Shown here: piece after piece, positions 15,115 to 46,738 of the stretch
Layout: every line of letters starts with the position of its first letter
How positions within the stretch are numbered: the first letter of the stretch is position 1
Source of the DNA: an uncultured delta proteobacterium
GTDB lineage: Bacteria > Desulfobacterota > Desulfobacteria > Desulfobacterales > B30-G6
Reading direction: 5' to 3'
DNA: 64,000 nucleotides
Assembly: GCA_963744665.1 (NCBI GenBank)
Contig: CAVUUM010000026.1
Location: 97,270 to 161,269 of the forward strand
The notes under the pieces: generated by a model
Told to the model about the DNA's origin: nothing
The model's database searches: none
What the model saw: the letters and a program-made list of their open reading frames with translations, nothing else
Program-made: the position numbers and the translations under genes

Positions 15115-16500
15115 CTATATGAGTCCTTTGCTCTCTAATCGCTTGACACAATTGATGTCAATATCCAGGATTTTGGCAATACGAATTTTAGCCTCAATTC
15201 CCTTCACACATCCAGGTAGTGGGGAAAGACTGCCCATCTCCAAATCTTCACGGATTTCCGTCATTACCACCGGATCGGAAAGATCATGAACTGAAACACG
15301 CAACTTGTCTGCCACATAGGCCTTGGCGTCGTTTATCTTCATACCACGGGTCATCTGCATTCGTGCCACCAGATCTCCGGCAGCCCGCATTCCACCCATG
15401 CCCGAGGCAATAGCGTGGGAAATAGCCATGCCTAACGGATCACCTACGCCAACCTACAACCCGTCGAGCCGGCAGATTTCCACCATGGCCGCAGAGGCGC
15501 GGGATGTAATGTCCACCGGCGGGTGATTGGTCATGGGAACACCGCCGACGCCCATACCCATGTTCGCATGGATCGGAATGTTGGCCACGTCACAGCAGGC
15601 TTTGGTAAAAGTAATGGCCCGAGCCAGATTCCAGGGGCAGGAATGATTGGTTTTGACATTGACCACCGGTCCAAAAATTGTCACGCCGGCTTTTTCCGCC
15701 ATCCTGACTTGATCATGGGCATACATACCGGCCAAGCGTTCGCCCTGGTACCTCAAATCCCCGTGCATTCCTAGAACAAATTCCCCTGCCATTCCAAGTT
15801 CAATACAGATACCGGGATACTTTTCATTCAGAATTTCAGAAGCCTTCAAACCGGCAAGGAAATCAGCATCCCCCGCCGCACCTACGGTATCAAGATTGAC
15901 ACCGTCTGCTCCGGATTCAACCATGGCGCCGGCAACAAAGACAATATCTTTGACAGCGGCCTCTACTGAATTCTCATAAGATTTTTGAACTTCGTCAATC
16001 TTTCCCATGGTCAACAGTTCCGAGGGATTTTGAAAAGGACCGTCCGGTTGGGTATACAAACCCAGGTTCGGCATGGCACCGTAGAAGAGTGGCGGGTGCG
16101 TCACCATCAATACTTGCTCCAGAACGGTTTGTTCCATGCTCACAATCGGTTTGACCTGCTTGTAGCTGTAGTCGATATGACCCAGTTCAAGGGTATCCGC
16201 TCCCAATAGCTTTTCATAGACCTGCAATGCTTGAACACGATGGACATCGATGGCAGTGCGCATCATCTTGATGGGTGCACCGTCATAAGAAAGTACGACT
16301 TCATTACCAGGTTCCACACCCACAAAACGATACGGTGTCATAAAAAGATCGAACAGGTATAGCAGCGCTTCTTTTGAAAGAGGGGCAATCCTGCCGTATT
16401 TGGCAGCATTTTCCGCACCTTCAACCAGATCGCTCATGAGTTGTTTTTCAGTCATTTCAACGGGAAACCCATCACCCATTCGTGTCATTATTTTTCCCAT
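15115..16500 (-). CDS. mtbB: Dimethylamine:corrinoid methyltransferase with in-frame UAG (pyrrolysine) at 15456..15454
   Basis: ORFs 15454..16500 and 15115..15429 share one frame and are separated only by TAG plus 8 sense codons. The joined sequence reads ...[45 protein letters not shown]. That matches my memory of the region around the Pyl codon in Methanosarcina MtbB. The N-terminal part ([40 protein letters not shown]) is also MtbB-like. The joined length is 461 codons. Confidence 0.85.
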
Positions 16501-16581
16501 AAGATCTCCTTTTTCACGTTATTTAAAACCTGGTCCTTTGGGCTAGGTCAGAGATATTTGGCTATGCCGAATGCGATAGTT

Positions 16582-16870
16582 ACTTAAATCCGAAGCACGA
16601 AATTCGAAATCCTAAACGGTTCGACAGGCTCACCACCCCGAGCAACGTCGAAAGGCAATACTTAAAGATCCAAATTCGAATGATCAAAACAAGACCGTGG
16701 AGATACAAGTTCGAGCACTATGTTTGAACCGCCATAGCGAGCGCATTCCCCGTAGCTTTAACCCCGTAGCTTGTCGAAGATCCCGGTTTATCGGGGCTGC
16801 GAGGATCTTCATTCATTTGAGCATTTGATATTTGGATTTGTTTTGTATTTCGATATTCGGATTTAGAATT
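16582..16870. repeat. Composite palindromic intergenic element (terminal inverted aaatccgaa/ttcggattt) enclosing family A copy 3 (16724..16812)
   Basis: The left arm (taaatccgaagcacgaaattcgaaatcc...caaattcgaatgatcaaaacaag) and right arm (gatatttggatttgttttgtatttcgatattcggattta) are imperfect reverse complements. A fragment of it (atttcgtgcttcg) recurs near 47455. Confidence 0.6.
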
Positions 16871-16949
16871 TATCATACGCTAAATGTGCATAATATTAAT
16901 CCCTTATAGGGTCGAATCAGTAGCAGGCCCTTTGGACCCGGGTATTTAT

Positions 16950-18449
16950 CTATTTGGAGACTTTGAGTTCCTTTTCTGCTTCCTCCACAATCGCTCGCAT
17001 GGTGGCCAGAACATCATCGGGCAGCGGGTCAGGCTTGTGGGTTTCTAAAATACGCCGCGCCTCTTCCGAAGCCCTTGCATATATATCTGTACTGCCGGAG
17101 GCCTCCCATTCTTCCCGCATCCTGCGATCGATGAGTTTAGGCTGGGATTGAGACCGCATGTGTTTGAACGTGGCATCATGACTGAGGAAATTTTTCCCTA
17201 TCCCAATCTCCCGAATGACGTCCACTGCCAGCGTTTCGTCGTTGACGGGGATTCCATGCAGCAAGAATTTGATCATCTTGGCAAATTCGTTGTCCATAAC
17301 CAGTTGGCCGAAATCGATGGTCATGCCCATTTCGATCATACCCAGGCCGTAAATCAGGTTGGCACCTGCCAACGCTGGTAACAGGCCTGTGATGGTTTTC
17401 TCGTGACCGGACTGGGCATCACAGACTTTGCTGTCGCCCTACCCGCCAGCGACCCAGCTGGGAAGCAGATAGTAGATGGACATTTGAGCCACCGCGGCGT
17501 TGATCAAAGCACACTCAGGAGATCCCACGGATGCGGCAGCCAGCCTCAGATCCATGGCCGTCGTGGAACTGCCGTAAATAAATTTCGCTCCTTTACGGGT
17601 ACACTGACTGAGCACAAGTCCTCCAAGGATTTCCGCGTTATGATCCACCAGGGTGCCGGCCAAGGTCACTGGAGACGAGCCACCGGCCATGGCCATGGAT
17701 AAAACATTTACGGCCAAATCTGCCCGAGCGGATTCCATGATAATTTCACAGCTGTCCTTAACAAGCTGCAGCGGACTCACCGGGCAGGTAATAAACGAAA
17801 TAATGGGACGCTCTTTCAGTTTTTCCTTGCCGCCGACAATGGCAGCGGCCATTTCAACAATTTTTTTGGTCAAATATCCATTGCCGGACCCCATGAACCC
17901 ATGTTTGGTCGTGTTGGGCAGCCAGGCTTCGGCGTTATGAAGCTGCACCGTCTGCGTCGGCACATCACTGGCGCCAACGGCCCGTTCATAAACATCGATT
18001 TCGCTCAGATAGTCGGCAATCAGAGCCGAGGCAGCCACATCCGCCTTGGTCGTCTCCCGATGCTCCCCCGTGTATGGGTCGTTAATAAAAACGCCTTCCC
18101 CAAAATTAGTGAAGCCTACGCGGTTTTTTTCCATAATAAAGTCGTTTTTTGAATCACGCCCGTACAACACAATTTTTGGCGGTGCTGAACGGATGGCGTC
18201 CTCAACCATGTGAGGGGGGAACTTGGCTATACGGTTCTTTTTGTCGATGACAGCGCCTCCGCCATCGAGGACAGCCAGCGCCTCTTCATCCTCGAAAAAA
18301 AGACCGGTCTTTTCCAGAACCTCAAGTGTGGCCAGATGAATTTCATCCATTTCCTCATCGGTAAAGACCTTGAATTCTAGGCCACCATCCCTGCTTTTTC
18401 CTGCTCGCATATTGCGTCTCAAGAAATCACCTCCTTTTGGTTTTACCAA
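16950..18449 (-). CDS. mttB: Trimethylamine:corrinoid methyltransferase with in-frame UAG (pyrrolysine) at 17441..17439
   Basis: ORFs 17439..18449 and 16950..17372 share one frame. I read the codons across the gap as ...[50 protein letters not shown] with no other stop. The joined length is 499 codons, with the UAG at codon 337. That size and position fit my memory of archaeal MttB. Confidence 0.85.
17385..17426 (-). other. 10-bp stem-loop in the mttB mRNA, starting 12 nt 3' of the in-frame UAG
   Basis: In the sense RNA, GUCUGUGAUG (17426..17417) pairs with CAUCACAGGC (17394..17385). That gives 9 Watson-Crick pairs plus one G-U and a 22-nt loop. The G-U position is a C-A mismatch on the opposite strand, so the structure is specific to the sense strand. 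Confidence 0.4.
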
Positions 18450-18674
18450 TTTACCTCAAATAGGAAACGATAACAGATCCTTTTCAGTTTAGCAAGGGAT
18501 CGGTTGCGGTGTTAGCTGAGTATACAACATTATTTTAGATAGTTATATTTAATGTCGCCAGGATTTTTTGTTGCCGGTCAAGATTGAAACGATTAAAGCA
18601 TATTGACAGGCAATACCCTAACTTCTTAAAGTCTGATAATGAGCAAACATTTTCATCGATAAAGGAAACGTCCC

Positions 18675-19436
18675 ATGAACTGGATAATGGACCCGAATAT
18701 CTGGCTGGCCTTATTGACATTGAGTGCCATTGAAATTGTGCTAGGTGTCGACAATATTGTTTTTATCGCTATTTTAGCCGGCAAACTTCCCGAACATCAA
18801 CAGGCCAGAGGACGAACAATCGGATTGATTTTGGCAATGGCCACACGAATTCTGCTTCTTTTTTCCATTACCCTGATCATGAAATTGACCCAACCGCTTT
18901 TTGTGATTTTTTCTTTTGAGATATCGGGTCGTGATATCATTCTGATTGCCGGTGGATTGTTTCTTCTGGTGAAGAGCACACTCGAAATTCACAGCAATCT
19001 GGAAGGCGAAGAAGCACACGTACAACAGGACCGGGTCAAAAAAGCAACATTTACAAGCGTGGTGACCCAGATCATGATCCTGGACATTGTTTTTTCAATC
19101 GATTCCGTGGTCACGGCCATTGGCCTGGCCAAGCAACTCAGTATCATGGTTGCGGCCATTGTTATCGCCGTTATCGTCATGATCTTTTTAGCGGGGCGCA
19201 TCAGTTCGTTTGTCGATAATCATCCAACCATCAAAATGCTGGCGCTGAGCTTTCTTTTGCTCATAGGCATCTCCCTGGTGGGGGAGGGGCTGGCGCTGCA
19301 CATCCCCAAGGGGTATATCTATTTTGCCATGGCGTTTTCGATATTCGTCGAAATCCTCAACATGAAAATCCGCAAGCATCGGGTCAAACCTGTAAAACTT
19401 CGCAACCCCAGGTCGGCAAAAATCATCCACACATAA
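18675..19436 (+). CDS. TerC-family integral membrane protein
   Basis: 253-aa ORF. LALLTLSAIEIVLGVDNIVFIAILAGKLP is typical of TerC/YoaE. There are multiple TM segments. Confidence 0.8.
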   Translation: MNWIMDPNIWLALLTLSAIEIVLGVDNIVFIAILAGKLPEHQQARGRTIGLILAMATRILLLFSITLIMKLTQPLFVIFSFEISGRDIILIAGGLFLLVKSTLEIHSNLEGEEAHVQQDRVKKATFTSVVTQIMILDIVFSIDSVVTAIGLAKQLSIMVAAIVIAVIVMIFLAGRISSFVDNHPTIKMLALSFLLLIGISLVGEGLALHIPKGYIYFAMAFSIFVEILNMKIRKHRVKPVKLRNPRSAKIIHT

Positions 19437-19588: not shown

Positions 19589-21595
19589 ATGACAGTTGTA
19601 TTGGGTATCGATACGGGCGGGACATATACAGATGCGGTTCTGATCAATTATGAGAACGGCAAAGTCCTGTCGAGTGCCAAGTCTTTGACGACGCACCAGG
19701 ATCTTTCCACCGGTATCCATGCGGCTGTCACGTCCGTTATGACCATCAATCGCAAAGCTATTTCCCCCAAAAAAATCTGCCTTGTGGGTCTGTCCACGAC
19801 CCTTGCTACCAACGCCATTGCAGAAGGGCACGGCGTCCCTGTTTGTCTTCTATTGATAGGGTATGACCGGGACTTGATCCATCAATACCGTTTCCAACAT
19901 GCCTTGGGAACACCCAATGTGGTCTATCTGCAAGGTGGGCATGACCAGCAGGGCAACGAACGTCGACCCCTGAACGAAGATGCCGTCAAAAATACCATTT
20001 TAAAGTGGCGAAAAAAAATCAATGCCTTTGGCGTCTCGGGCTATTTTGGTGCATTCAACCCGGAACACGAATTAAAGGTCAGAACATGGATAGAAGACCT
20101 TACAGATCTTCCGGTGACCTGCGGTCATGAACTTTCCACGCGTCTGGACGCCATCCGCAGGGCAACAACCGTGGCCCTGAATGCCCGATTGATTCCCATC
20201 ATACAAGATCTGATATTCAATGTCCGTGCCACCCTGAAAGCCCTGTCCATTCCGGCACCACTGATGGTGGTAAAGGGTGATGGAAGCCTGGTTCAAGCGG
20301 ATTGGGCCTTGAAGCGGCCCATCGAAACGGTCCTTTCCGGCCCGGCCGCAAGCGCACTGGGGGCCCTGAAACTCACCGGGGGAAAAAATACATGGGCTGT
20401 GGACATGGGCGGAACCACCACTGATATTGTCGAGCTCATTGAAGGTGCGCCGTCGCTCAATCCGAATGGAGCCTGTATTGGCGGATGGCGGACCATGGTT
20501 GAAGCCGTAGATGTTCACACCATAGGACTTGGAGGAGATAGCCATGTCCGTGTGTCTTCCGAAAACCAGTTGGTTATAGGTCCTAATCGTGTCATACCGC
20601 TATGCAAACTGGCCAGTGAATACCCGGACAAGGTAATGGGTACACTGAGAGCCCTTGGTAATTCAGACAAATCTGATCTGGATGCTACCCAGTTTCTGAT
20701 TTCGGGAAAAGCAGAACAACCCCAACTGTCTCAAAACGACGCAACACTATTGGCAAAATTGGATGATGGACCCCAACCGCTGACAACCATCACCGGCCCC
20801 GCTGCTTATGCAGACCCATGGATTTCAAAACGTATCCAGAACCTTGCAGAAACAGGTCTAATTCAATGCGCAGGCTTCACTCCAACGGATGCGCTGCACG
20901 TCCTGAAATGTTTTCAGGAATGGGATGCAGAGGCATCTCTACTGGCGGGCAAACTTCTATCCACCCATCTTGGATTGCCCACAGAAGTATTCTGCAAACA
21001 GGTGGTGGAAACCGTGTCCAGAAAGACCGCAACAGCCATTGCATCCAAGGCTATCACAGACGAAATGGGGAATCCTGATTGGAAACAGGTGCAAACTGAC
21101 GGGTTTCTGCTGAATAAAGCCCTCAAACAAGACCAGAAAGGAAAATTGATTCCAGAAATCAGATTGAAGCATCCCCTGGTCGCTCTGGGTGCGCCGGTAA
21201 CAGCATATATGCCCGGAGCCGCAGATATCCTGAGGACCGGGCTTTCAATTCCTGAATTTGCGGAGGTAGCCAACGCTATCGGAGCTGTCAGCGGTCAAAC
21301 GGTTTTACGACTCAGAATCCGCATCCGACCCATAAGCGGAAGTCAAAACGTCCGGCTTCTTTCCCCTCACAGCCCCAGGGATTTTTCTAATATTGAAGAA
21401 GCCGTTGAATATGCCATGGGTCACATGACACCCCTGGCAGAAGATATGGCACGTCAGGCCGGTGCCAAACATGTGCAGGTGCAGGTAATCCGAAAAGAAA
21501 AAAAGGCCAGAGCGAAAGGAAACAAAGAGGTATTTCTTGAGACCGAATTGACTTTCATAGCCCTTGGAAGACCGGCCATGGCATTTAAACAGTAA
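19589..21595 (+). CDS. Hydantoinase/oxoprolinase-family (ASKHA-fold ATPase) protein
   Basis: 668-aa ORF. The N-terminus VVLGIDTGGTYTDAVL and the later AVDMGGTTTDI are the two phosphate-binding motifs of the hydantoinase A family. Confidence 0.7.
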   Translation: MTVVLGIDTGGTYTDAVLINYENGKVLSSAKSLTTHQDLSTGIHAAVTSVMTINRKAISPKKICLVGLSTTLATNAIAEGHGVPVCLLLIGYDRDLIHQYRFQHALGTPNVVYLQGGHDQQGNERRPLNEDAVKNTILKWRKKINAFGVSGYFGAFNPEHELKVRTWIEDLTDLPVTCGHELSTRLDAIRRATTVALNARLIPIIQDLIFNVRATLKALSIPAPLMVVKGDGSLVQADWALKRPIETVLSGPAASALGALKLTGGKNTWAVDMGGTTTDIVELIEGAPSLNPNGACIGGWRTMVEAVDVHTIGLGGDSHVRVSSENQLVIGPNRVIPLCKLASEYPDKVMGTLRALGNSDKSDLDATQFLISGKAEQPQLSQNDATLLAKLDDGPQPLTTITGPAAYADPWISKRIQNLAETGLIQCAGFTPTDALHVLKCFQEWDAEASLLAGKLLSTHLGLPTEVFCKQVVETVSRKTATAIASKAITDEMGNPDWKQVQTDGFLLNKALKQDQKGKLIPEIRLKHPLVALGAPVTAYMPGAADILRTGLSIPEFAEVANAIGAVSGQTVLRLRIRIRPISGSQNVRLLSPHSPRDFSNIEEAVEYAMGHMTPLAEDMARQAGAKHVQVQVIRKEKKARAKGNKEVFLETELTFIALGRPAMAFKQ

Positions 21596-21789: not shown

Positions 21790-22587
21790 ATGTTAATTGT
21801 TGGAGAACTGATCAATGCAAGCCGAAAGACCATTGGCACGGCCATTGAAATAGAGGACGGGGAAAGCATAGCAAAAATCGCCAGAGATCAGGCCGAAGCC
21901 GGTGCTGATTTTATTGATGTCAATGCCGGTGTTTTTGTCGGTAAAGAGCCTGAATACCTGGAATGGCTGGTGAAAACTGTTCAAGCAGCCGTCGATAAAC
22001 CCTGCTGCATAGACAGCCCGGACCCCAAGGCCATCGAAAAAGCGCTGGCTGCCCACAAAGGCATAGCCATGATCAATTCCATATCCCTGGAAAAAGAACG
22101 CTATGACACCCTGATGCCCATCATTGCCGGAACCGATCTTAAGGTGGTAGCCCTCTGTATGAGCGACGAAGGCATGCCGGAGACCACCTCGGATCGAATG
22201 AGAATTGCCGATAAACTGATCAACGGTCTCATCCAGAATCGTATCCCCTTGGAAAATATCTATGTAGATCCACTGGTTCAACCCGTATCCACGAACAACA
22301 ACTTTGGAGTGGAATTTCTGAACGCCATCCAACAAATTATGAATACATTTGACGGTATTCACACGGTTTGTGGTCTTTCCAATATCTCATTTGGCCTGCC
22401 TCTCAGAAAATTTCTGAATCAGACATTTATGAGCATGGCCATTGCCAAGGGACTTGATGGGGCCATAGTCAACCCGCTGGACAAGAAAATGATGGCCAAT
22501 ATCATTGCAGCAGAAGCCCTTGCCGGCAGGGATGATTATTGCATGTCATACCTCAAGGCCTACCGGGCAGATCTCTTTGCATCTTAA
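21790..22587 (+). CDS. Methyl-corrinoid:tetrahydrofolate methyltransferase (pterin-binding, MtrH/AcsE-like)
   Basis: 265-aa ORF with GELINASRK, AGADFIDVNAG, INSISLE and VCGLSNISFGLP. These are hallmarks of pterin-binding (DHPS-like) methyltransferases found in bacterial corrinoid methyl-transfer systems. Confidence 0.75.
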   Translation: MLIVGELINASRKTIGTAIEIEDGESIAKIARDQAEAGADFIDVNAGVFVGKEPEYLEWLVKTVQAAVDKPCCIDSPDPKAIEKALAAHKGIAMINSISLEKERYDTLMPIIAGTDLKVVALCMSDEGMPETTSDRMRIADKLINGLIQNRIPLENIYVDPLVQPVSTNNNFGVEFLNAIQQIMNTFDGIHTVCGLSNISFGLPLRKFLNQTFMSMAIAKGLDGAIVNPLDKKMMANIIAAEALAGRDDYCMSYLKAYRADLFAS

Positions 22588-22637: not shown

Positions 22638-23279
22638 ATGTCTGAAATAATTTACCAGGAAGCCATGGAGGCTATCCTGAAGGGTGATGTGGACAAAGCC
22701 GTTGACACCGCCAAAAAGGGGATCGACATGGGTATGGATCCTTTGGACCTGATGAACAACGGTTTCATCTCCGGCATCAATGAAGTGGGCGACCTTTTCG
22801 AAACCGGCAGACTTTTTCTGCCCCAGCTGGTTATGTCCGCCTCGGCCATGGAAAAAGCCACGGAAATTATCAATGCGGCCATTCCAGAAGGTAAGGGAAC
22901 CATATCCGGGAAAGTTTTGGTGGGGACGGTCGAGGGCGACGTACACGACATTGGAAAAACCATTGTCGTGGCCCTGTTCAAAGCCAATGGCTTCGATGTA
23001 CTGGATATCGGAAGGGACGCACCCATCGAACGTTTTATTGACGAGGCTGAAAAATTTGGAGCCGATATTATCGGTTCGAGCACCCTTTTAACCACCACCA
23101 TGGCCGTGCAGAAACAGATCGAAGAGGAGTTAAAAAAAGCCGGTATAAGGGATAAATACAAAACCCTTGTGGGCGGTGCTCCTGTAACCCAACGATGGGC
23201 AGACCGAATCGGTGCCGATGCCTATGCCCAGGATGCAAGCGACGGTGTGCGCAAGGTTAAGGAATTGTTAGCAGGCTAG
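22638..23279 (+). CDS. Corrinoid (B12-binding) methyl-carrier protein, MttC/MtbC-like
   Basis: 213-aa ORF with an N-terminal helical cap and GTVEGDVHDIGKTIV (DxHxxG) plus SSTLLTTTM and GGA. It ends in TAG (23277..23279). Confidence 0.85.
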   Translation: MSEIIYQEAMEAILKGDVDKAVDTAKKGIDMGMDPLDLMNNGFISGINEVGDLFETGRLFLPQLVMSASAMEKATEIINAAIPEGKGTISGKVLVGTVEGDVHDIGKTIVVALFKANGFDVLDIGRDAPIERFIDEAEKFGADIIGSSTLLTTTMAVQKQIEEELKKAGIRDKYKTLVGGAPVTQRWADRIGADAYAQDASDGVRKVKELLAG

Positions 23280-23382: not shown

Positions 23383-23456
23383 GGGGAGTGGATCGCAATG
23401 GGATCGTGTGGACTCTAAATCCACATAGACGGGTGCAACTCCCGTACTCCCCGCCA
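23383..23456 (+). tRNA. pylT: tRNA-Pyl, anticodon CUA (amber suppressor), CCA encoded
   Basis: Folded by hand. The acceptor stem pairs GGGGAGU with ACUCCCC. The anticodon stem is 6 bp (UGUGGA/UCCACA) with loop CUCUAAA, placing CUA at 23415..23417. The variable loop is 3 nt (UAG). The T arm is ACGGG-UGCAACU-CCCGU, without the canonical T-loop sequence. The discriminator is G, followed by CCA. A long anticodon stem, short variable loop and single base between acceptor and D stem are the known oddities of tRNA-Pyl. Confidence 0.9.
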
Positions 23457-23533: not shown

Positions 23534-24376
23534 ATGACAATCTCCTGGACACAAACACAGATACGACGACTGAATGCCTTGAATGCCCCGGGCGCGGCAT
23601 TGAAAAAGACCTTCGATGACAAACCCGCGCGTGAGAATGCTTATCAAGCCTTGGAAAAATCACTGGTGATGACTCAGCGACAGCAGTTGGCGGAATTTCA
23701 AACCACGCCCGGCTGTCCCGAACTTTGCCGGCTTGAAACCAGGCTTGTCCGTATTCTGACGCAAGCCGGATTTGCCCAGGTAACGACCCCCATCATCATG
23801 TCCAGGGGACTGTTGAAGAAGATGTCAATCGATGCAAAGCACCCGCTCAATTCCCAAATATTCTGGCTCCAGGACGATAAATGCCTGCGACCGATGCTGG
23901 CGCCCCATCTCTACTATCTCCTGGTTGACCTGCTCCGCGTTTGGGAACGACCTGTACGAATCTTTGAAATTGGCCCCTGCTTCCGAAAAGAATCCAAGGG
24001 AGCGAAACACGCCGGTGAATTTACCATGTTGAACCTGGTTGAAATGGGTACCCCCGAGAAAACCCGGAAAGAAAGAATCCTGAATCTGGGCGCACGTGTG
24101 GCCACGGCAGCAGACGTGAAAGACTTTCGTTTTGAGACAGTGTCCTCGGAAATATACGGCGACACCATCGATATCGTCGCCGGAAAAGACAATCTCGAAA
24201 TTGCCTCTGCCGCCATGGGGCCACATCCTCTGGATCGGCCATGGAAGATAAGTGAATCCTGGATCGGAATCGGTTTTGGTCTCGAACGCCTCCTGATGGC
24301 CTCCCACCAATCCAGGAACCTTGCCAGGTTCTGTCGAAGCCTGTCTTATTTAGACGGCGTCCGGTTAAATATTTGA
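23534..24376 (+). CDS. pylSc: Pyrrolysyl-tRNA synthetase, catalytic C-terminal polypeptide (bacterial split form)
   Basis: 280-aa ORF with class II aaRS motifs LRPMLAP, FEIGPCFRKES and IGIGFGLERLL. It lies immediately 3' of the CUA tRNA. Confidence 0.9.
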   Translation: MTISWTQTQIRRLNALNAPGAALKKTFDDKPARENAYQALEKSLVMTQRQQLAEFQTTPGCPELCRLETRLVRILTQAGFAQVTTPIIMSRGLLKKMSIDAKHPLNSQIFWLQDDKCLRPMLAPHLYYLLVDLLRVWERPVRIFEIGPCFRKESKGAKHAGEFTMLNLVEMGTPEKTRKERILNLGARVATAADVKDFRFETVSSEIYGDTIDIVAGKDNLEIASAAMGPHPLDRPWKISESWIGIGFGLERLLMASHQSRNLARFCRSLSYLDGVRLNI

Positions 24377-24479
24377 GCACTCGGGAAGTTTTTAACCATT
24401 TTGGAGCGGGAGGAAGAATCCACGACCCCGGTACGCCAGCACATGTATAAGGCACCTAAAGAAAGAACAATATTCGATA

Positions 24480-25676
24480 ATGAAAGTAGCGATCATCGGT
24501 GGTAAACTTCAAGGGCTTGAAGCGGCATATCTTGCCGAAAAAGCCGGCTGGGATGTGACAATCATCGATCGGGCGCCCGATGTGCCGGCTGCGGGTCTCT
24601 GCCACCAGTTTTTGCTTGCCGACATTACCAACCAAACAGACTTGAAGCGCTTTCTGCAACCGTTTGACCTAATCATACCGGCCCTGGAGAACCATGACGC
24701 TTTAGCGTGTCTCCAAAATTGCGCACAAAATGACAGAACACGCATTCTTTTCGATTTCGATGCCTATGCCATCACCTCCTCCAAGATTGAATCGGACAAA
24801 CTGCTCGCCGGCATCCACATCCCCACCCCATCATCCTATCCCGACGGTGGTTTTCCTGTTATCGTCAAACCAAGTAGAAGCAGCGGCAGCAAGGGAATTT
24901 GTGTTGTTCATGATTCAAAACAACTTGAATCTCATCTTGCAACGGCACCCGGAGAGCAGGTCATTCAGAAATTTGTCCATGGCCCCTCATACTCCCTGGA
25001 AATCATCGGCTACCCGGGAAACTATTGTCCCCTCCAGGTAACCGAACTTGAAGTGGATCCGGTCTTTGATTGCAAGCGGGTGATTGCCCCCTCGGGTCTT
25101 TCCCAAAAAATGATTGCGGATTTCGAACATATCGCCGTCACCACTGCCAACGCCCTAAAATTAAAGGGTTTGATGGACGTAGAAGTCATTCTGGATTATG
25201 AGGTACTGAGAGTTCTCGAAATCGATGCGCGCCTCCCCAGCCAGACACCCATAACCGTGCATACCTCCACCGGTGTCAACATGCTTCAGTTGCTGGCAGA
25301 GCAACATTGCCGGCCGTCACACAATGGGGCGGGTATTGCTGTTGCCCAGAGAGGTGTCGTGTATGAGCATATCAGGGTTAGCGGCAGCACATTGGTTGTC
25401 ACGGGTGAACATGCCATGGCATCCGCAGGCGCTCTCCATCTGGTAGAGGATTTTTTCGGTGCCGATGAAGCCATCACCTCCCAGACGGGCAACCGGACGG
25501 ATTGGGTGGCGACATTGATCATTTCCGCAGAAAACAGAACCACGGCATGGGAGAAACGGGAGGCGGTTATCGCCGATATTATGCGTTTTTTTAATCTCGA
25601 CACCTACAGGGACCACAGCCCGTTCCATTATGGTGCTGACGAGCCATCCCTGACGTTGAAAGGATCATTCAAGTGA
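24480..25676 (+). CDS. pylC: Pyrrolysine biosynthesis ATP-grasp ligase
   Basis: 398-aa ORF. MKVAIIGGKLQGLEAAYLAEKAGW, FDFDAY, VIVKPS and LEIDARLPSQTP run parallel to my recollection of Methanosarcina PylC. Confidence 0.85.
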   Translation: MKVAIIGGKLQGLEAAYLAEKAGWDVTIIDRAPDVPAAGLCHQFLLADITNQTDLKRFLQPFDLIIPALENHDALACLQNCAQNDRTRILFDFDAYAITSSKIESDKLLAGIHIPTPSSYPDGGFPVIVKPSRSSGSKGICVVHDSKQLESHLATAPGEQVIQKFVHGPSYSLEIIGYPGNYCPLQVTELEVDPVFDCKRVIAPSGLSQKMIADFEHIAVTTANALKLKGLMDVEVILDYEVLRVLEIDARLPSQTPITVHTSTGVNMLQLLAEQHCRPSHNGAGIAVAQRGVVYEHIRVSGSTLVVTGEHAMASAGALHLVEDFFGADEAITSQTGNRTDWVATLIISAENRTTAWEKREAVIADIMRFFNLDTYRDHSPFHYGADEPSLTLKGSFK

Positions 25677-26521
25677 CCCGGCTGACATCAAGTGATATTC
25701 AAGGCATTTCCGAAGAACTGCCCGCATACGAATCATCACTGATGAAAAAAACCGGTTGCTCCCTGCGACAGCTTGCCTGTCGGGCAATGAAAGTGACTGA
25801 AATAGATGTCCAGACATCTTTGGAACACACCCTTGTGGGTGTCATACCCATGACATCGGGTGGCGGCGTATTAAAAGGATTTTGTGGGACTGTGGCAAAG
25901 ATTGTCAACCACATCGGTTGCAGAGCCTTTGCTACACGGAGTACGGATGCTTCGGGTATCGCCGAAGCAGTGGAAAAGAAGGCCGACATCCTCATGTTTG
26001 CCGATGAAAATCGGTTTGTCGCCCTTGATATGCAGCACCGCAAACTCATGGACAATGCCGATGCAACCGGCAGGGGCTTCGTGGCGGGTCTGAACCTCAT
26101 GGCAGAGAGCTTGAACGATCAAAAGGTACTTGTCCTGGGATGTGGTCCGGTGGGGCAGAGCGCGGTGAAGGCCCTGGCAAAAACGGGGTGCCGTATTTCT
26201 GTCTACGACATCGAAACAAAAGCATACGACCGCGTATCAACGGAATTCAAGAACGACCCGGATATTGAGATTCAATTTTTGTACAACCTTGATCTGGCAT
26301 TGCATCAACACGCACTCATGGTCGATGCATCCCCGGCGGGCGGTTTCATTGGGGCGCGGCATATCAGTCCCCATACGATTATCAGTGCTCCCGGTATGCC
26401 TCTTGGCCTTGACAGGTCAGCGCTGGCAGCCATCGGCGGCAGACTCCTCCACGACCCGCTTCAGATCGGGGTGGCAACCATGGTGGTCGGTGCTTTAGCC
26501 CGAACATTTCATGAAATTTGA
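25673..26521 (+). CDS. pylD: Pyrrolysine synthase (NAD-dependent dehydrogenase)
   Basis: 282-aa ORF with IPMTSGGG, ILMFADENRF, VLVLGCGPVGQSA and SAPGMPLG, as in PylD. A 4-nt overlap joins it to pylC. Confidence 0.85.
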   Translation: MTRLTSSDIQGISEELPAYESSLMKKTGCSLRQLACRAMKVTEIDVQTSLEHTLVGVIPMTSGGGVLKGFCGTVAKIVNHIGCRAFATRSTDASGIAEAVEKKADILMFADENRFVALDMQHRKLMDNADATGRGFVAGLNLMAESLNDQKVLVLGCGPVGQSAVKALAKTGCRISVYDIETKAYDRVSTEFKNDPDIEIQFLYNLDLALHQHALMVDASPAGGFIGARHISPHTIISAPGMPLGLDRSALAAIGGRLLHDPLQIGVATMVVGALARTFHEI

Positions 26522-26593: not shown

Positions 26594-26935
26594 ATGAAAT
26601 CAAAAAAACCAGCCAAACGATTTTACCGCAAACGGGTGGAGCTTTTCCGTCTGATCGAGAAGATAAAACTCTGGCCAGCCAGAAGCGGTCTCCTCCACGG
26701 TATCAAATCCATCGACATCATGGGTGACCAGGCCCGTATCACAACCCATTGCAATAAAACATTCATGGTGAACAACTCCCGAAACAGCCGCGCGGCAAGA
26801 TGGCTTCGCAACAAATGGTTCAATGGGGCCTGCGGCGCATGCGGTGTCCCTGAGTGGAAACTAGAAAAATATGCGTCCACACAATTCAGACGTCACTTTG
26901 GGTCACAATTGCTGAAAAAGACTGGACCCGAATAA
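26594..26935 (+). CDS. pylSn: Pyrrolysyl-tRNA synthetase N-terminal tRNA-binding polypeptide
   Basis: 113-aa basic ORF (KRFYRKRVELFRLIEKIKLWPARSGLLHGI...HCNK...ARWLRNKW...CGACG). Its size, position after pylD and Cys/His pattern fit bacterial PylSn. Confidence 0.75.
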   Translation: MKSKKPAKRFYRKRVELFRLIEKIKLWPARSGLLHGIKSIDIMGDQARITTHCNKTFMVNNSRNSRAARWLRNKWFNGACGACGVPEWKLEKYASTQFRRHFGSQLLKKTGPE

Positions 26936-27115: not shown

Positions 27116-27805
27116 CTATGACACACCAAATCCCGCTTCAATTTTTGGATCATAGGCAGCCTTTCGAGAAGGACAATCCTTGCGGTCACAAAGCTGGCAA
27201 CTGATAAATGGAACCTCTGTGGGAAAATAGATACCGGACACCGATTTTGCAGGAATCATCAGGCAGCTGCTGTTAAGGGAAACATTGATGGGGGTTTTCC
27301 CATCCCCAAACAAAGCAAACAAAGGCCGCTGTTCTTCCAGAGGCCAATCTGTCAATGACCCCGGGCTCATAAAGGACATACCCTCGAGGCCATACCCCGC
27401 CTGCAGCGTTTGTTCGAGATAGTTTCGCACGGTACTCAGGGCAATGTTGCCGATCACATCCAGATAGTATTTCACCACCAGGTCTTTCTGGGCATCCATC
27501 TGCTCCAGATAATGGCTTCCGATAGTAACAACAAATGGGAACACCCGCTCCACCGCTGCCAGGTTTTTTGCCAGCACCCGGCTCCTGAAACGCACCCCAT
27601 CAATACCGATGAGTTGGTCCTGCTTTTCATCGATATAGCAAACCCGGTAGACCGCTTTTGCCCGAATATCCGGCAAGATCGTCTGGATGAGAGTCTTGAC
27701 TTCGTCCCAGCGTGCACCCCTTTTCAGGTGAAGCTGGCGCCTGATTTCCCCAAAAGGCAAAGATAAAGGTATTTTTTCAAGAATATGCATTTTTTCTTCC
27801 AGCAT
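27116..27805 (-). CDS. Methionine-synthase activation-domain-like protein (corrinoid reactivation domain) with a C-terminal Cys cluster
   Basis: 229-aa ORF. SPGSLTDWPLEEQRPLFALFGDG...INVSLNSSCLMIPAKSVSGIYF resembles the MetH AdoMet/activation domain. The C-terminus reads CQLCDRKDC. It ends in TAG. Confidence 0.55.
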   Translation of the reverse strand: MLEEKMHILEKIPLSLPFGEIRRQLHLKRGARWDEVKTLIQTILPDIRAKAVYRVCYIDEKQDQLIGIDGVRFRSRVLAKNLAAVERVFPFVVTIGSHYLEQMDAQKDLVVKYYLDVIGNIALSTVRNYLEQTLQAGYGLEGMSFMSPGSLTDWPLEEQRPLFALFGDGKTPINVSLNSSCLMIPAKSVSGIYFPTEVPFISCQLCDRKDCPSRKAAYDPKIEAGFGVS

Positions 27806-27855
27806 CCGAACATCTATATCCGCTCAAAATATATTTTCAAGCGTTTTATCACGTT

Positions 27856-28946
27856 AGGGGACGTTCCTTTATATGTTGACAATCTAAAATTTGTCTGCAA
27901 TAAAACACAAATGCCACGCCAATCAAGAATAGACGCCCCTGGGGCTTTGCATCATATTATTGTGAGAGGCATCGAAAAAAAACCAATTTTTCGAGATGAT
28001 GCCGATAGAGATAACTTTTTGGAGCGATTGAAAAACATCTTGAAAGATGACGCAGCATTTTGCTTTGCATGGTCCCTAATGCCCAATCATGTTCATTTGC
28101 TTTTGAAAACCGGAAACACATCGATCTCAACTATTATGAGACGGCTTCTTACGGGTTACGCAGTCTATTATAATCGCAAACATGATCGTGCGGGCCATCT
28201 ATTTCAGAACCGATACAAATCGATTCTTTGCCAGGAAGACACATATCTTTTAGAACTGGTAAGATATATCCACTTGAACTCCCTCCGAGCAGGTATTGTA
28301 ACGGATCTTGAGTCGCTTGATAGATACAAATACAGTGGTCATGCAACAATAATTGGTAACGATAAGAACGACTGGCAAACTACTGAATATATTCTTGCTA
28401 TTTTTTCTGAAAGGCTATCACAAGCGCGCCGGAGATACCGGAAATACATACAAAAAGGAATATCTGCGGGGAAAAGACCGGATCTCGTTGGTGGTGGCCT
28501 TGTCAGGAGTGTTGGTGGCTGGCACGCTCTCAAGGATTTGAGAAGAAGAAAAGCGTACATGAAAGGAGATGAACGGATCTTGGGCGACAGTGATTTTATC
28601 AAAAATGTCCTTCAATCCTGTAGGGATGAATATGAACAAAAATATTTATTAAAAGCCAAAGGATACACTTTTGATACCGTTGTCGCTCGTGTCGCCGAAG
28701 TATTAGGCATGGAAAAAGCAGACGTTTTGTCAGCAGGTAGACAACCCCTACGGGTAAAGGCCAGAAGATTGTTATGTTTCTGGGCATCACGAGAACTCGG
28801 TATAACCATGGTGGACTTGGCCAAACGTTTAAAAATATCACCGTCGACCGTAAGCCAATCAGCTAGCCGTGGAGAAAAAATCGCAAAAGAAAGCAATTTA
28901 AGATTATTATGATGCAACATTATCAACTTATCAAGGAACGTCCCCT
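27856..28946 (+). mobile_element. IS200/RAYT-like unit: Y1 transposase gene bracketed by a perfect 13-bp inverted repeat
   Basis: aggggacgttcct at 27856..27868 and its exact reverse complement aggaacgtcccct at 28934..28946 flank the CDS 27911..28912. Confidence 0.6.
27911..28912 (+). CDS. REP-associated tyrosine transposase (IS200/Y1 HUH) fused to a C-terminal DnaA-C-like HTH domain
   Basis: From the Met at 27911, MPRQSRIDAPGALHHIIVRG...PNHVHLLL (HUH)...LVRYIHLN (catalytic Tyr region). The C-terminus RLLCFWASRELGITMVDLAKRLKISPSTVS is HTH-like. The ORF-track start at 27785 is probably too far upstream. Confidence 0.75.
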   Translation: MPRQSRIDAPGALHHIIVRGIEKKPIFRDDADRDNFLERLKNILKDDAAFCFAWSLMPNHVHLLLKTGNTSISTIMRRLLTGYAVYYNRKHDRAGHLFQNRYKSILCQEDTYLLELVRYIHLNSLRAGIVTDLESLDRYKYSGHATIIGNDKNDWQTTEYILAIFSERLSQARRRYRKYIQKGISAGKRPDLVGGGLVRSVGGWHALKDLRRRKAYMKGDERILGDSDFIKNVLQSCRDEYEQKYLLKAKGYTFDTVVARVAEVLGMEKADVLSAGRQPLRVKARRLLCFWASRELGITMVDLAKRLKISPSTVSQSASRGEKIAKESNLRLL

Positions 28947-33880: not shown

Positions 33881-33911
33881 GTATAGAATAACCATTTAGG
33901 ATACAAATTGT

Positions 33912-37538: not shown

Positions 37539-38012
37539 ATGACCGTTGCCTATACCAGTTACCTGACAATAAAGAAGCACGCCGGGGCGCATCGAACAGC
37601 CCGTTTGAAAAACTTTGATGAGCCCATAAACTTTGGTATCCACGGCGGCATCAAGGATTTTTATCAGGAAAAGTACGGACGAAAACTTGAAGGACCGGAA
37701 TACCCGGCAACCCTCGACCATGTCGTTGCCGGCGTTGCCGGCTGACTGACGGGAACCCTTGCCGGTGCGCTGGATGCGCGCGGAATATCAGCAACTGAAA
37801 ATCTGGTGGCCCATGTCGAAGGCGATGTAGATGCTGTTGACGGAGTCCTGAGAATTACGAAGATACGAATAAAATATCAATTCGAGGCCCCCAAAGACCT
37901 TCTACAAAAGGCGGAAAGGGCCCTTCAGGTCTATGCGGACCTGTGTCCTGCCTACCAGTCCGTGAAGAATGGCATCGATTGCTCCTGGGATGCAGACATC
38001 GAGACAGTTTAA
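37539..38012 (+). CDS. OsmC/Ohr-family peroxiredoxin-like protein with in-frame UGA (candidate selenocysteine) at 37743..37745
   Basis: ORFs 37539..37745 and 37806..38012 share one frame. I read the gap without a further stop as ...LDHVVAGVAG-U-LTGTLAGALDARGISATENLVAHVEGDVD. The UGA falls where the OsmC family has its conserved Cys (A-x-C). The second family Cys is present (YADLCPAY). A hairpin lies 16 nt downstream, at 37762..37783. Confidence 0.65.
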
Positions 38013-42688: not shown

Positions 42689-43109
42689 TATAAATTCGCT
42701 CCACGAATTTATTCGGCCGGTTGGTGGCCGCTGCAATGTCCGTAATGGGAATTGCGGATGTGTTGCTTGCAAACAGGGTTCCCGGGCTGCAGATCCCGTC
42801 CAACAGTCGGAAAATTTCCTGCTTCAATTCACATTGTTCAAAAACAGCCTCTATCACCAGGTCGACATCTTTGCCCGTTGGAAGGTCTTGAATCGTCTTT
42901 ATACGACCGATAATGGTTGAGCTGGTTTCACCTAGCGTTCCTTTCTCAATCAATTGTCCCACGGACCATTCAATGTTTTTGACCGCCTTTTTCAAGGCCT
43001 CATCGGAAACCTCATATAACAGAACATCACGTCCTGCCTGTGCACTCACCTGCGCGATGCCACTCCCCATGAGACCCGATCCCACAACCATGATTTTCTG
43101 GATATCCAT
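42675..43109 (-). pseudogene. 3-hydroxyacyl-CoA dehydrogenase, NAD-binding N-terminal half only (truncated)
   Basis: MDIQKIMVVGSGLMGSGIAQV...ASNTSAIPITDIAAATNRPNKF reads as expected, then ends after ERIYNGSF. The whole C-terminal dimerisation domain is missing. The stop overlaps the start of the acyl-CoA dehydrogenase. AAGGAG precedes the ATG at 43109. Confidence 0.55.
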
Positions 43110-43409
43110 GATTGTCTCTCCTTTCATTCATTGGTTTTGTCCTGCCAACAGAATCATAGTTTACACATCTTTTCAAGAAGTTGCGGTTTTTAGTAGTTCA
43201 AAAAAACTTTTTATGCTAATAAATTTGTTGTACAAATTTATGAATCGCGACGTTTCCGCTTCAAGCGTTGTTCTAATCTATCTTGCAAAGTAATTGGTGC
43301 GCAGGGCTTCAGCCCTGCCATAACGGGTTTCGGGCAGCGCTGAAACGCTGCGCTACAACCTTGATACAACATTGTTGAGAAGCTAATATATCAACGGGGA
43401 GATTCTGTC

Positions 43410-45572
43410 ATGAAAGATAATATTGATATCTGGCGTGACGAAAATGGGGTTCCTCATGTTGAGGCTGACAACCTGGCAGATCTCTATTGGGGTCAGGGCT
43501 ACGTTCACGCTACCGACCGGGGTCTGCAGATGCTGCTCATGCGCATCCTTGGCCAGGGAAGGCTTTGCGAACTGATCGACGACAGCGATGCATCGCTGGC
43601 AATCGACGTCTTTTTCAGAAAAATGAACTGGTGCGGGCATGTAAAAGATGCTGTCAATGCCTTACCGGAAGAAACCCAGCAGCTTGTTGCATCCTATGCC
43701 CATGGCATTTCAACCGCATTTGCCCAAAGATACCCCTGGGAACTCAAACTGCTCGGATACACACCCGAGCCATGGAAAGCAGAGGATATCATTACCCTGA
43801 CCCGTATGGTGGGATATCTGACCTTAAGCCAATCCCAGGCTGAAATAGAGCGTCTACTCATGGAAATGATCCAGGCAGGTGTCTCGCAGGCGCATCTCGA
43901 AGAACTCTTTCCGGGACATCTGGGCGGTCTTGATATGGATCTTTTGAAGAAAGTCTCTCTGCAGGAACGGGTGGTCCCACCGGATGTCTTGTGGCAAACC
44001 GCGGCACCACGTATGATGGCCTCCAATAACTGGGTCATTTCCGGTGTCAAAACTGTCTCCGGAAAACCGATCCTGTCCAACGATCCTCATCTGGAAGTCA
44101 ACCGGCTTCCCAACATCTGGTGTGAAATTGTTCTCAAAATCAAAGATCAATTTGCCATGGGTGCCACCATGCCAGGTTTCCCTGGTATACTCACCGGCCG
44201 CACCCGGAATATTGCCTGGGGCGTTACCTATGCCTTTATCGACGCCATCGATTCATGGGTCGAAAAGTGCAAAGACGGTCAGTATTATCGCGAGGAAGGT
44301 GATCAATGGATACCCTTTTCCCAACGCAGGGAAACGATTCTGCGAAAAAAGAATCCTCCTCAAGAAGTGATCTTCTATGAAAATGACCACGGCGTCCTGG
44401 ATGGTGACCCTGAAACAGAAGGATACTACCTGACCACCCGCTGGTCGGCAGACAAATCCGGAGCGGTTTCTCTGGAGCACTATCTGCACATGTGGCATGT
44501 GGCCACCGTACAGGAGGCCATGGATACACTTGGCAGGCAGGAGAGCGCGTGGAGTTTTGTTTTTGCCGACATCAACGGTGACATCGGATTCCAGATGTCG
44601 GGTCTTGTGCCAGTGCGGCGGGAGGGCGTCAGCGGTCTGGTGCCGCTGCCAGGCTGGGACAAGGCCAATGACTGGCGGGGATTTGTGAGTCATGAAGACC
44701 TGCCACGGGCATTGAACCCTGACCAGGGTTTTTTTGCAACAGCCAATCATGACCTGAATGCCTTCGGCAAGGTGGCACCTATCAATATGCCCATGGGCTC
44801 GTACCGTGCAGACCGTATCAACGATCTCCTTGCACAGCGAGATGATTTTGTGACTGAAAATATGTTCGAGATGCAATTCGATCTCTTTTCCAGACAGGCA
44901 GAAGCCTACATGGCCATCCTCAAACCACTCCTTCCCGACACAGAACAAGGACGGATATTGAGGGAATGGGACCTTTGTTATGACCGGGACTCCCAGGGGG
45001 CCTTCCTCTTTGAAGCTTTCTACCGAAAACTCATCTCGGAAACCTTTGGGAAAAATGGATTCGGCAAGGATGTGTGCCAGCACCTGTCCGACGAGACAGG
45101 CGTCTTTATCGATTTCTACCAGAATTTTGACCGGATCTTGTTATCTGAAACCTCTGTGTGGTTTGGCGGGGAAAGCAGAGAATCACTCTATGAGCGTACT
45201 GCCCAAAAAGCCCTGGACATCCCCGTGGAACCATGGGGAAAATCACGGAATTTCATAATGCGTCATCTGGTGTTCGGAGGAAAACTTCCCGCTTTTCTGG
45301 GGTTCGACCGGGGGCCAATTACGGGAATCGGTGGTCGTGCAACGATTCACCAGGGTCAGATCTACCGCAGCGACAACCGGGATACGACCTTCTTTCCGTC
45401 ATATCGGATCGTGTCTGATCTTTCCAATGATGACTGTCGTTCCAATTTGGCCGGGGGACCGTCTGATCGGCGTTTTTCAAAATGGTATGTTTCCGATCTT
45501 GAAAACTGGCAGAAGGGGGAATATAAAACCCTCAGCATCAACGATAATCGGAAAAGATTACCATTCAAGTAA
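43410..45572 (+). CDS. Penicillin/AHL-acylase-family Ntn hydrolase
   Basis: 720-aa ORF. Family motifs include DRGLQM and the nucleophile context MASNNWVISG. Confidence 0.8.
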   Translation: MKDNIDIWRDENGVPHVEADNLADLYWGQGYVHATDRGLQMLLMRILGQGRLCELIDDSDASLAIDVFFRKMNWCGHVKDAVNALPEETQQLVASYAHGISTAFAQRYPWELKLLGYTPEPWKAEDIITLTRMVGYLTLSQSQAEIERLLMEMIQAGVSQAHLEELFPGHLGGLDMDLLKKVSLQERVVPPDVLWQTAAPRMMASNNWVISGVKTVSGKPILSNDPHLEVNRLPNIWCEIVLKIKDQFAMGATMPGFPGILTGRTRNIAWGVTYAFIDAIDSWVEKCKDGQYYREEGDQWIPFSQRRETILRKKNPPQEVIFYENDHGVLDGDPETEGYYLTTRWSADKSGAVSLEHYLHMWHVATVQEAMDTLGRQESAWSFVFADINGDIGFQMSGLVPVRREGVSGLVPLPGWDKANDWRGFVSHEDLPRALNPDQGFFATANHDLNAFGKVAPINMPMGSYRADRINDLLAQRDDFVTENMFEMQFDLFSRQAEAYMAILKPLLPDTEQGRILREWDLCYDRDSQGAFLFEAFYRKLISETFGKNGFGKDVCQHLSDETGVFIDFYQNFDRILLSETSVWFGGESRESLYERTAQKALDIPVEPWGKSRNFIMRHLVFGGKLPAFLGFDRGPITGIGGRATIHQGQIYRSDNRDTTFFPSYRIVSDLSNDDCRSNLAGGPSDRRFSKWYVSDLENWQKGEYKTLSINDNRKRLPFK

Positions 45573-45686
45573 ACCTTTTTTGGTGATGACGCCGGTCTGG
45601 TTTCAACCACATTTTTAACCACAACCTATCAACACCAAACAATTGAGACCCTGTTTTTTCAGAAACAGGATTAAGGAATCAGGGAT

Positions 45687-46148
45687 ATGCAATACAGACG
45701 TTTAGGCCGCTCGGGGCTGATGGTTTCAGAATTGACATTGGGCACGATGAATCTTGGTGGGCCCACAGACGAACCCACCTCATTGCTGATGATAGACAAG
45801 GCCCTTGACCACGGCATCAATTTACTGGATTGCGCCAACGTCTATGCAGACCGTATTACAAACGCAGGCATAAAAATAGCTCAAAAGGTCAGCAAGCGGG
45901 CAAAAGAAAATGAATGGTCACCGGCATCACTATCCGTGTCATGGATTTTGCACAAGCCTGCCATCACCTCAGTCATTATCGGCCCTCGCACACCAGAGCA
46001 CCTGGATGATCTTGTCTCGGCCCAGAATATCCACCTGTTACCTGAAGACCTGGCCTGGTTCGACACCCTGGTTCCCCCCGGAACAAATGTTTCCGACCAT
46101 TTCAACACGGCCGGATGGCGACGGCCTATCCAGACTCATATCCATTGA
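45687..46148 (+). pseudogene. Aldo/keto reductase with a large internal deletion
   Basis: The N-terminus (MQYRRLGRSGLMVSELTLGTMNLGG...LDCANVYA) joins directly to the C-terminal end of the fold (SLSVSWILHKPAITSVIIGPRTPEHLDD). The total is 153 aa, against roughly 300+ aa for this family. Confidence 0.6.
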
Positions 46149-46738
46149 CCCACAAACTGTTTCAGCGCTTCATACGGCTGGGCTCCCACCAGACGGCCCG
46201 CCCCATACAAGAAAGTGGGAACGGCCGTAATACCCAGCTGATGTGCACGCTGCCAGTCGGCATCCACAGCTTCTTTATAGGTTCTTTTTTCGATACTTTT
46301 TCTGGCCTCATCCGGGTCCAGGGAGACGGAACTCACGATATCGAGCAGGTTTTTCATCCTGGCAATGTTTTTGCCATCTGCAAAATAGGCCCGAAAAGCA
46401 GCCTGGTGGAAAGCATCTCCCTGGCCCTGATCTTCGGCCCACTTGGCCAGTTCCTGGGCCAAACGACTGTTATAGGTTTTCGTGCGGGCGCCAAAAGGGA
46501 GACCTTCAGCATCGGCAACTGTCTTCATATGCGACAGCGCCTCTGGGATGTTATACGAACGACCGGCAAAAAGTTCCTCCAGGGTTCGCCCCTCTTCCGG
46601 TGTTTCCGGGTGCAATGGAAATGCCAGCCAGCGAATGTTAATATCCATTTCTTTTTTCAGTTTTTCAATACGACCTGTAATGAAGTAACACCACGGTCAG
46701 ATGGTATCCGAGAAGATTTCGAGTGTTGGTTCATTCAT
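46136..46738 (-). CDS. DsbA/FrnE-like thiol:disulfide oxidoreductase with in-frame UGA (candidate selenocysteine) at 46699..46697
   Basis: The listed ORF 46136..46648 extends in frame upstream to the ATG at 46738: MNEPTLEIFSDTI-U-PWCYFITGRIEKLKKEMDINIRW. The UGA replaces the first Cys of the family's CPWC(Y) redox motif. Confidence 0.65.

Follow-up and report, generated by a model that had tools for sequence, protein, structure and literature searches.

The δ1 endosymbiont of Olavius algarvensis is a deltaproteobacterium that uses both selenocysteine (Sec) and pyrrolysine (Pyl) (Zhang & Gladyshev 2007; PMC1976440). It carries pylT, pylSn, pylSc and single copies of pylB, pylC and pylD in a pylB-pylC-pylD operon, and Pyl is found in MtbB (six genes) and MttB (two genes) but in no MtmB. 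Its selenoproteins include HdrA, FrhD/MvhD, FdhA, rhodanese, a GlpC-type Fe-S oxidoreductase, a DsbA-like protein, SelD, a HesB-like protein, and methylated-DNA-protein-cysteine methyltransferase (PMC1976440). Dual genetic code expansion has also been described for abundant marine sulfate-reducing Desulfobacterales, among them the Deltaproteobacteria-bbl metagenome-assembled genomes (MAGs) (Kivenson, Paul & Valentine 2021; PMC8318568). That report describes a Sec-containing SelD, about 34 putative selenoproteins (among them DUF166, rhodanese, HdrA, and FdhA), and a Pyl-containing trimethylamine methyltransferase encoded near its cognate corrinoid protein and a MetH-family methyltransferase, with a proposed route via methyl-tetrahydrofolate and the Wood-Ljungdahl pathway. 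Here we analyze a 64,000-nt stretch of contig CAVUUM010000026.1 (the whole of which we call the window) from an uncultured Desulfobacterales-type sulfate reducer, in which two genes with in-frame UAG codons, a pyl cassette, and two genes with UGA codons at cysteine (Cys) positions lie within about 32 kb.

Split PylSn and PylSc proteins also occur in the Firmicutes Desulfitobacterium hafniense and Acetohalobium arabaticum. In these organisms few genes contain Pyl, UAG is still a common terminator, and the pyl genes, pylB included, are arranged in the order pylT-pylSc-pylB-pylC-pylD-pylSn. In A. arabaticum, whether Pyl is decoded appears to depend on what the organism grows on.

The window belongs to a genome assembly of 4.77 Mb in 28 contigs (GCA_963744665.1), with completeness estimated at 95.8% and contamination at 6.3%. 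The genome contains dsrA and the gene for the CdhC subunit of carbon monoxide dehydrogenase/acetyl-CoA synthase, which fits a sulfate reducer able to oxidize methyl groups via the Wood-Ljungdahl pathway. The genome, at 4.8 Mb and with a G+C content of 49% in the window, differs from the Deltaproteobacteria-bbl genomes, which have 2.5-2.8 Mb and 41%.

We hold with high confidence that this organism reads UGA as Sec and UAG as Pyl in specific genes, through two independent, site-specific recoding systems. A sequence-only reading of this DNA had located the same five elements, and all were found where it placed them. It had also said that standard gene callers split all four recoded genes, which is what open reading frame (ORF) calling with translation table 11 does. 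Its view that few organisms use both amino acids is correct overall, but for this very group the combination is on record (PMC1976440, PMC8318568). The four recoded genes of the window are as follows.

15115..16500, minus strand: mtbB, dimethylamine:corrinoid methyltransferase; read through, residues 6-453 match TIGR02368 with 502.7 bits (cut-off 369)
16950..18449, minus strand: mttB, trimethylamine:corrinoid methyltransferase; residues 25-492 match TIGR02369 with 768.4 bits (cut-off 525)
37539..38012, plus strand: OsmC-like selenoprotein gene, 157 codons; residues 56-149 match Pfam OsmC (PF02566) with 50 bits, spanning the UGA
46136..46738, minus strand: DsbA/FrnE-like selenoprotein gene, 200 codons; residues 5-195 match Pfam DSBA (PF01323) with 116 bits, spanning the UGA

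In both methyltransferase genes a single in-frame UAG falls at the canonical Pyl position, and both family alignments cross the stop. The codon in question is number 349 of mtbB (TAG 15454-15456, in the context LDGL-O-VGVGDP, where O is Pyl) and number 337 of mttB (TAG 17439-17441, WVAGG-O-GDSK), whose start is ambiguous between a TTG at 18449 and an ATG at 18410. Relatives for comparison were gathered through a PylSc search and a search of related genomes. The TAG is kept in three related loci for mtbB (L014, L015, and L018) and in four for mttB (the same three and L016), and every copy of either gene in these four loci has it at the identical codon. When orthologs are compared downstream of the stop, substitutions at the first, second, and third codon positions number 8/7/58 for mtbB and 4/1/49 for mttB.

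The two UGA genes behave in the same manner. The UGA of the OsmC-like gene is codon 69 (TGA 37743-37745, VAGVAG-U-LTGT, where U is Sec), and a single TGA occupies this column in all 10 orthologs, which are 75-99% identical and come from two genera. Two distant homologs from a large protein database (P0014 and P0032) have Cys there, and a second Cys of the family (LCPAY) follows downstream, with C136-P137 nearly invariant in the alignment. The gene is preceded by a GGGAGG Shine-Dalgarno sequence upstream of its ATG. A PDB sequence search with this protein gave no relative of solved structure. In the DsbA-like gene the UGA is codon 14 (TGA 46697-46699, SDTI-U-PWCY), which yields the redox motif U-P-W-C. 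Nineteen of 20 orthologs, the 19 drawn from 12 genera, share the TGA; the sole stop-free member (L064) has Cys at the U column (FSDYT-C-PFCY, with the motif C-P-F-C). Substitution counts downstream of the UGA are 60/23/169 for the OsmC-like gene and 664/514/1284 for the DsbA-like gene. The excess at third codon positions thus persists after all four stops, which indicates that the downstream parts evolve as coding DNA with the frame unchanged. Conserved stops, coding constraint beyond them, and Cys homologs at the UGA sites together bear out each of the four individual calls.

The recurrence of a stop at one and the same codon across as many as 19 independent genomes, its location exactly at catalytic Cys or Pyl positions, and the continued third-position excess are difficult to reconcile with pseudogene lesions or assembly errors, even though this MAG has some contamination and one mtbB copy elsewhere in it is frameshifted (contig C25, 80.4-81.9 kb). 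A genome-wide reassignment of TGA or TAG fares no better. Among ORFs of at least 250 codons, TGA still terminates 35% and TAG 21%, so the recoding is site-specific rather than a change in codon meaning, and the existence of dedicated tRNA-Sec and tRNA-Pyl genes argues against lesions and reassignment alike. We consider these explanations effectively refuted.

Because TAG ends about a fifth (21%) of long ORFs, site-specific decoding of UAG as Pyl must be partial or conditional. The terminators of mtbB (15115-15117) and mttB (16950-16952) are themselves TAG codons, and readthrough there would add 28 and 10 residues, respectively, before the next stop.

The machinery for Pyl lies between the two pairs of recoded genes, together with other components of methylamine metabolism. 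Four genes separate the methyltransferases from the cassette: one for a TerC-family membrane protein and the first three features below.

19589..21595, plus strand: hydantoinase/oxoprolinase-type (ASKHA, MutL/GlmL-like) ATPase, 668 aa; matches Pfam Hydant_A_N and Hydantoinase_A, with weak MutL and weak GlmL matches
21790..22587, plus strand: MtrH-type methyltetrahydrofolate:corrinoid methyltransferase, second methyl-transfer step; NF005719, 352.9 bits (cut-off 259)
22638..23279, plus strand: cognate corrinoid protein of the MtbC/MttC type; TIGR02370 (pyl_corrinoid), 238.2 bits (cut-off 215)
23383..23456, plus strand: pylT, tRNA-Pyl with anticodon CUA; ARAGORN
23534..24376, plus strand: pylSc, catalytic subunit of the split bacterial pyrrolysyl-tRNA synthetase; TIGR02367, 310.2 bits (cut-off 178)
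24480..25676, plus strand: pylC; TIGR03909, 397.1 bits (cut-off 248)
25673..26521, plus strand: pylD; TIGR03911, 240.1 bits (cut-off 150)
26594..26935, plus strand: pylSn, the tRNA-binding small subunit of the synthetase; TIGR03912, 132.3 bits (cut-off 51)

The four protein genes of the cassette each exceed their NCBIfam equivalog cut-offs. In the drawn fold of pylT the anticodon stem has 6 bp, the D-loop is small, and the variable loop is short, which is the odd shape expected of tRNA-Pyl, and pylT lies upstream of pylSc in five related loci. The cassette called by the sequence-only reading is therefore present in these five genes, but pylB is missing from it. The ATPase gene is syntenic in the four related loci named above (79-80% identity), within the cluster of mttB, corrinoid protein, and pyl genes, and by this inference from context its product might be an activase or chaperone of the corrinoid protein.

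In the mechanism we propose, Pyl would be made by PylB, PylC, and PylD, and PylSn/PylSc would charge tRNA-Pyl(CUA), which would compete with release factor to decode the single UAG in each of mtbB and mttB. MtbB and MttB would then move a methyl group from dimethylamine or trimethylamine onto the adjacent corrinoid protein, from which the MtrH-like enzyme would transfer it to tetrahydrofolate and thus into the Wood-Ljungdahl pathway of the sulfate reducer. The same route from methyl group to tetrahydrofolate was proposed for Deltaproteobacteria-bbl. What the consulted sections on those genomes describe is the trimethylamine enzyme, whereas the present genome has four intact Pyl-type mtbB genes as well as five mttB genes, and a cassette that lacks pylB.

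These nine genes, each with TAG at the aligned Pyl column, are all the intact UAG-containing methylamine methyltransferase genes of the genome; beyond the pair in the window there are three further mtbB and four further mttB loci. About 13 paralogs of the MttB superfamily have no stop at this column, and the single MtmB homolog is also stop-free, a property shared with the Olavius δ1 symbiont. A scan for UAG-containing genes other than methyltransferases gave nothing convincing. One acyl-CoA dehydrogenase gene (C8:12204, minus strand, with a near-identical copy at C24:2595) has an in-frame TAG within a conserved Q-x-x-GG-x-GY motif, at a position that is Leu, Met, or Ile in paralogs; the gene may be a pseudogene, or else UAG may unexpectedly be read through there. 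A fifth mtbB copy (C25:80400-81900, minus strand), situated in a methyltransferase-rich region of C25 (57-85 kb), has two frameshifts while retaining TAG at the Pyl column, and is likely a pseudogene.

The set of genes for Sec is complete. A tRNA-Sec(tca) gene is located at C7:179057-179154, and genome-wide profiles found selA (605 bits), selB (373 bits), and selD (371 bits), all above their cut-offs. Neither selA nor selB is beside the tRNA gene; both are on other contigs. The selD gene itself carries one in-frame TGA. In the proposed pathway, SelD would make selenophosphate, SelA would convert Ser-tRNA(Sec), and SelB would bring the charged tRNA to UGA codons closely trailed by a selenocysteine insertion sequence (SECIS) hairpin. 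Sec would occupy the first redox position of the DsbA-like U-P-W-C motif and a catalytic Cys position of the OsmC-like protein, which is of peroxidase type.

A genome scan for interrupted genes, as the sequence-only reading had suggested, recovered at least 32 UGA-containing selenoprotein genes in addition to the nine UAG genes. A Sec site was counted only if a paralog has Cys or TGA at the column or if a Pfam domain spans the site, and genes duplicated on near-identical contigs were counted once. The families and gene numbers are listed here.

HdrA: 5
MvhD/FlpD: 5
CCG-domain Fe-S oxidoreductase: 4
FdhA: 2
Rhodanese: 2 genes with 3 UGA codons
DsbA/thioredoxin-type: 2
GrdB-like: 2
DUF1573: 2
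OsmC-like: 1
MGMT-like (P-U-H-R-V): 1
SelD: 1
URO-D/MtaA-like: 1
Glutaredoxin: 1
C_GCAxxG_C_C: 1
DUF166: 1
HesB-like: 1, just under the Pfam cut-off

A search for additional Sec genes that combined a hexamer score with hairpin detection was set aside, as it returned many false positives from neighboring genes in the same frame. The selenoprotein families of the Olavius δ1 symbiont recur in this genome, with one difference: in that data set OsmC-like proteins appear only as Cys forms, whereas here the OsmC-like protein is a Sec protein (PMC1976440).

The URO-D/MtaA-type methyltransferase gene of this list (C1:213256, minus strand, near C1:209921-217664) has its in-frame TGA in the context FAPG-U-DIP, 31 codons from the end. 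A strong hairpin follows on the 3' side and the Pfam domain spans the TGA. The gene adjoins the stop-free MtmB homolog, a corrinoid protein gene, and an MttB-like gene, and it may encode a Sec-containing methylcobamide methyltransferase.

The sequence-only reading had also expected the Sec and Pyl proteome of this genome to be under-annotated. The numbers above agree with this, as do public copies of the OsmC-like protein. Its closer database homologs are cut at the TGA, start just past it, or have W at that column (P0001-P0008, P0009, P0010, P0018, P0021), the W most likely arising from a gene-calling table in which TGA encodes tryptophan. Copies that are cut off also occur in MAGs of Planctomycetales, Gemmataceae, and Myxococcota.

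Candidate RNA elements accompany all four in-frame stops.

15357..15456, minus strand: Rfam PYLIS_2 match, 100 nt from the mtbB UAG; RF02509, 88.2 bits (gathering score 36)
17342..17441, minus strand: Rfam PYLIS_3 match, 100 nt from the mttB UAG; RF02510, 78.2 bits (gathering score 38)
37762..37783, plus strand: SECIS-like hairpin 3' of the OsmC-like UGA; RNAalifold consensus, -13.5 kcal/mol
46665..46683, minus strand: SECIS-like hairpin 3' of the DsbA-like UGA; RNAalifold consensus of 17 orthologs

The requirement for PYLIS elements is under debate, and the two matches may largely reflect conserved coding sequence. For bacterial SECIS elements, criteria of the bSECISearch type call for a stem-loop right after the UGA whose apical loop contains a G and lies roughly 16-37 nt downstream. 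Both predicted hairpins have this spacing. The OsmC-like hairpin is an 8-bp G+C-rich helix that begins 19 nt downstream, with a UGGAU loop that begins 26 nt past the U of the UGA; all eight pairs are kept in eight distinct sequences, three of them through one-sided G-U/G-C changes. The DsbA-like hairpin has six pairs and a GG-containing loop (AGGUC or CGGGC) that begins about 21 nt past the UGA, and compensatory double changes occur at two of these pairs (U-A to C-G in four sequences and A-U to G-C in one). A different hairpin predicted from the single DsbA-like sequence was rejected as too near the UGA, after folding of the alignment gave this better-placed helix. The energetic and covariation support for the two putative SECIS elements is modest.

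Several results weigh against dual recoding as we describe it. No double compensatory changes were seen in the OsmC-like hairpin among the eight distinct sequences, the DsbA-like consensus is energetically weak (-3.5 kcal/mol), and single-sequence folding after the two UGA codons gave unremarkable z-scores of -1.0 and -2.0. Insertion of Sec and Pyl is itself deduced from the genes. The assembly has 6.3% contamination and several near-duplicate contigs. Most directly, no pylB was found in the 95.8%-complete assembly, either by profile (matches to TIGR03910 reach at most 23 bits, where the cut-off is 348) or in a tblastn search with the PylB proteins of two relatives (L017 and L019). PylB sequences 86-88% identical were found on short metagenome contigs, none of which could be linked to this genome or to its contig ends. 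The check suggested by the sequence-only reading, on the presence of the sel and pyl gene sets, thus confirms the sel set and, except for pylB, the pyl set.

Within the window, pylB is absent between pylSc and pylC (24377-24479), where the 103 nt from stop to start leave no room for it. This pylB-less junction is common to four congeners, and in all four an intact pylB (455-465 bits) is found on another contig or far from the cassette, next to ABC-transporter, aminotransferase, and aldehyde:ferredoxin oxidoreductase genes. In more distant relatives (L017, L019, and L020), pylB is still between pylSc and pylC. The genus has displaced pylB out of an otherwise intact pylT-pylSc-pylC-pylD-pylSn cassette, a further difference from the Olavius δ1 symbiont and its pylB-pylC-pylD operon (PMC1976440).

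Since four congeners with the same cassette carry pylB elsewhere, an assembly gap is, with good confidence at the least, the likeliest reason for its absence, and pylB would then reside in an unassembled part of this genome. An acyl-CoA dehydrogenase gene located about 7 kb downstream of pylB in two congeners has its counterpart at C25:783-1979 (87% amino acid identity with the G005 copy), only 0.8 kb from the contig end, which fits such a gap. A ~55-nt repeat is present upstream of pylB on related metagenome contigs (L068:756-820 and L069:114-178), and many sites in this genome match it at 79-87% identity.

A genuine loss of pylB would be the more unusual outcome. The UAG codons would then be decoded only with scavenged 3-methylornithine or Pyl, or with a desmethyl analog that PylC and PylD build from D-ornithine and that the synthetase charges. 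PylC and PylD are able to make desmethylpyrrolysine from D-ornithine in Escherichia coli. Two search methods fail to find pylB in a nearly complete assembly, the gene is outside the cassette across the whole genus, and the 15-kb region that bears it in relatives has no ortholog in this assembly. Nonetheless, some 4% of the genome is missing from the assembly, an intact pylB is retained by each of the four congeners that share this cassette, and the ortholog of a pylB-neighbor gene lies near an end of C25, which fits a gap. We judge true loss improbable. It is equally doubtful that pylB is absent altogether and that the nine UAG-containing methyltransferase genes depend on Pyl or 3-methylornithine scavenged from the community, or on desmethyl-Pyl. 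If this were the case, however, the organism would have a naturally auxotrophic or variant system for the 22nd amino acid.

Small contigs of this assembly (C11, C12, C18, C20, C22, C24, and C28) show 90-99% protein identity to stretches of larger contigs, for example C22 to C2, C24 to C4 and C8, and C11 to C8. This suggests strain duplicates, in line with the estimated contamination.

The proximity of the Sec genes to the Pyl locus raises the possibility of a functional “recoding island” whose parts are co-regulated or co-transferred. Two Sec genes are less than 23 kb from the cassette, compared with about 0.2 expected by a rough estimate from ~32 Sec genes in 4.77 Mb, and in at least five congeners (G008, G011, G012, G015, and G016) a single contig carries both the OsmC-like and the DsbA-like gene, separated by 4-10 kb. 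Conserved order inside one genus is, however, expected from common descent, and the proximity was picked out after the fact. The intervening genes are unrelated to either system: a REP-associated tyrosine transposase, a Liv-type ABC transporter, an acyl-CoA ligase, a thiolase, an acyl-CoA dehydrogenase, and a penicillin-acylase-like gene. In addition, other contigs carry the sel genes as well as the majority of the Sec and Pyl genes. We regard a functional island as very improbable. The clustering within 32 kb appears to be inherited gene order, in a genome with many genes of both kinds, and not a functional unit.

Two neighboring features deserve brief description. Directly 3' of pylSn (27116-28912), all close relatives as well as the window have the transposase gene, which is of the IS200/Y1 type, and a gene for a conserved 229-aa protein with no family match. 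An aldo/keto-reductase remnant of 153 aa (45687-46148, plus strand) overlaps the 3' end of the DsbA-like gene; it matches only the first ~60 and last ~75 model positions, and its middle appears to have been deleted.

Dual expansion of the genetic code with Sec and Pyl is already documented for this bacterial group, and the genome analyzed here is a solid new example rather than a new phenomenon. Its local particularities are the unlinked or unassembled pylB, the Sec form of the OsmC-like protein, and the number of mtbB copies. Our understanding of how either recoding system works is unchanged. The recoded set is nonetheless large, with at least 32 Sec genes and nine Pyl genes, and annotation with table 11 breaks or shortens more than 40 genes in this genome and its relatives, several of which are central to energy metabolism (HdrA, MvhD, and FdhA) and to methylamine use. 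For the ecology of these organisms, the findings lend further weight to the view that methanogens face competition from sulfate reducers for dimethylamine and trimethylamine.

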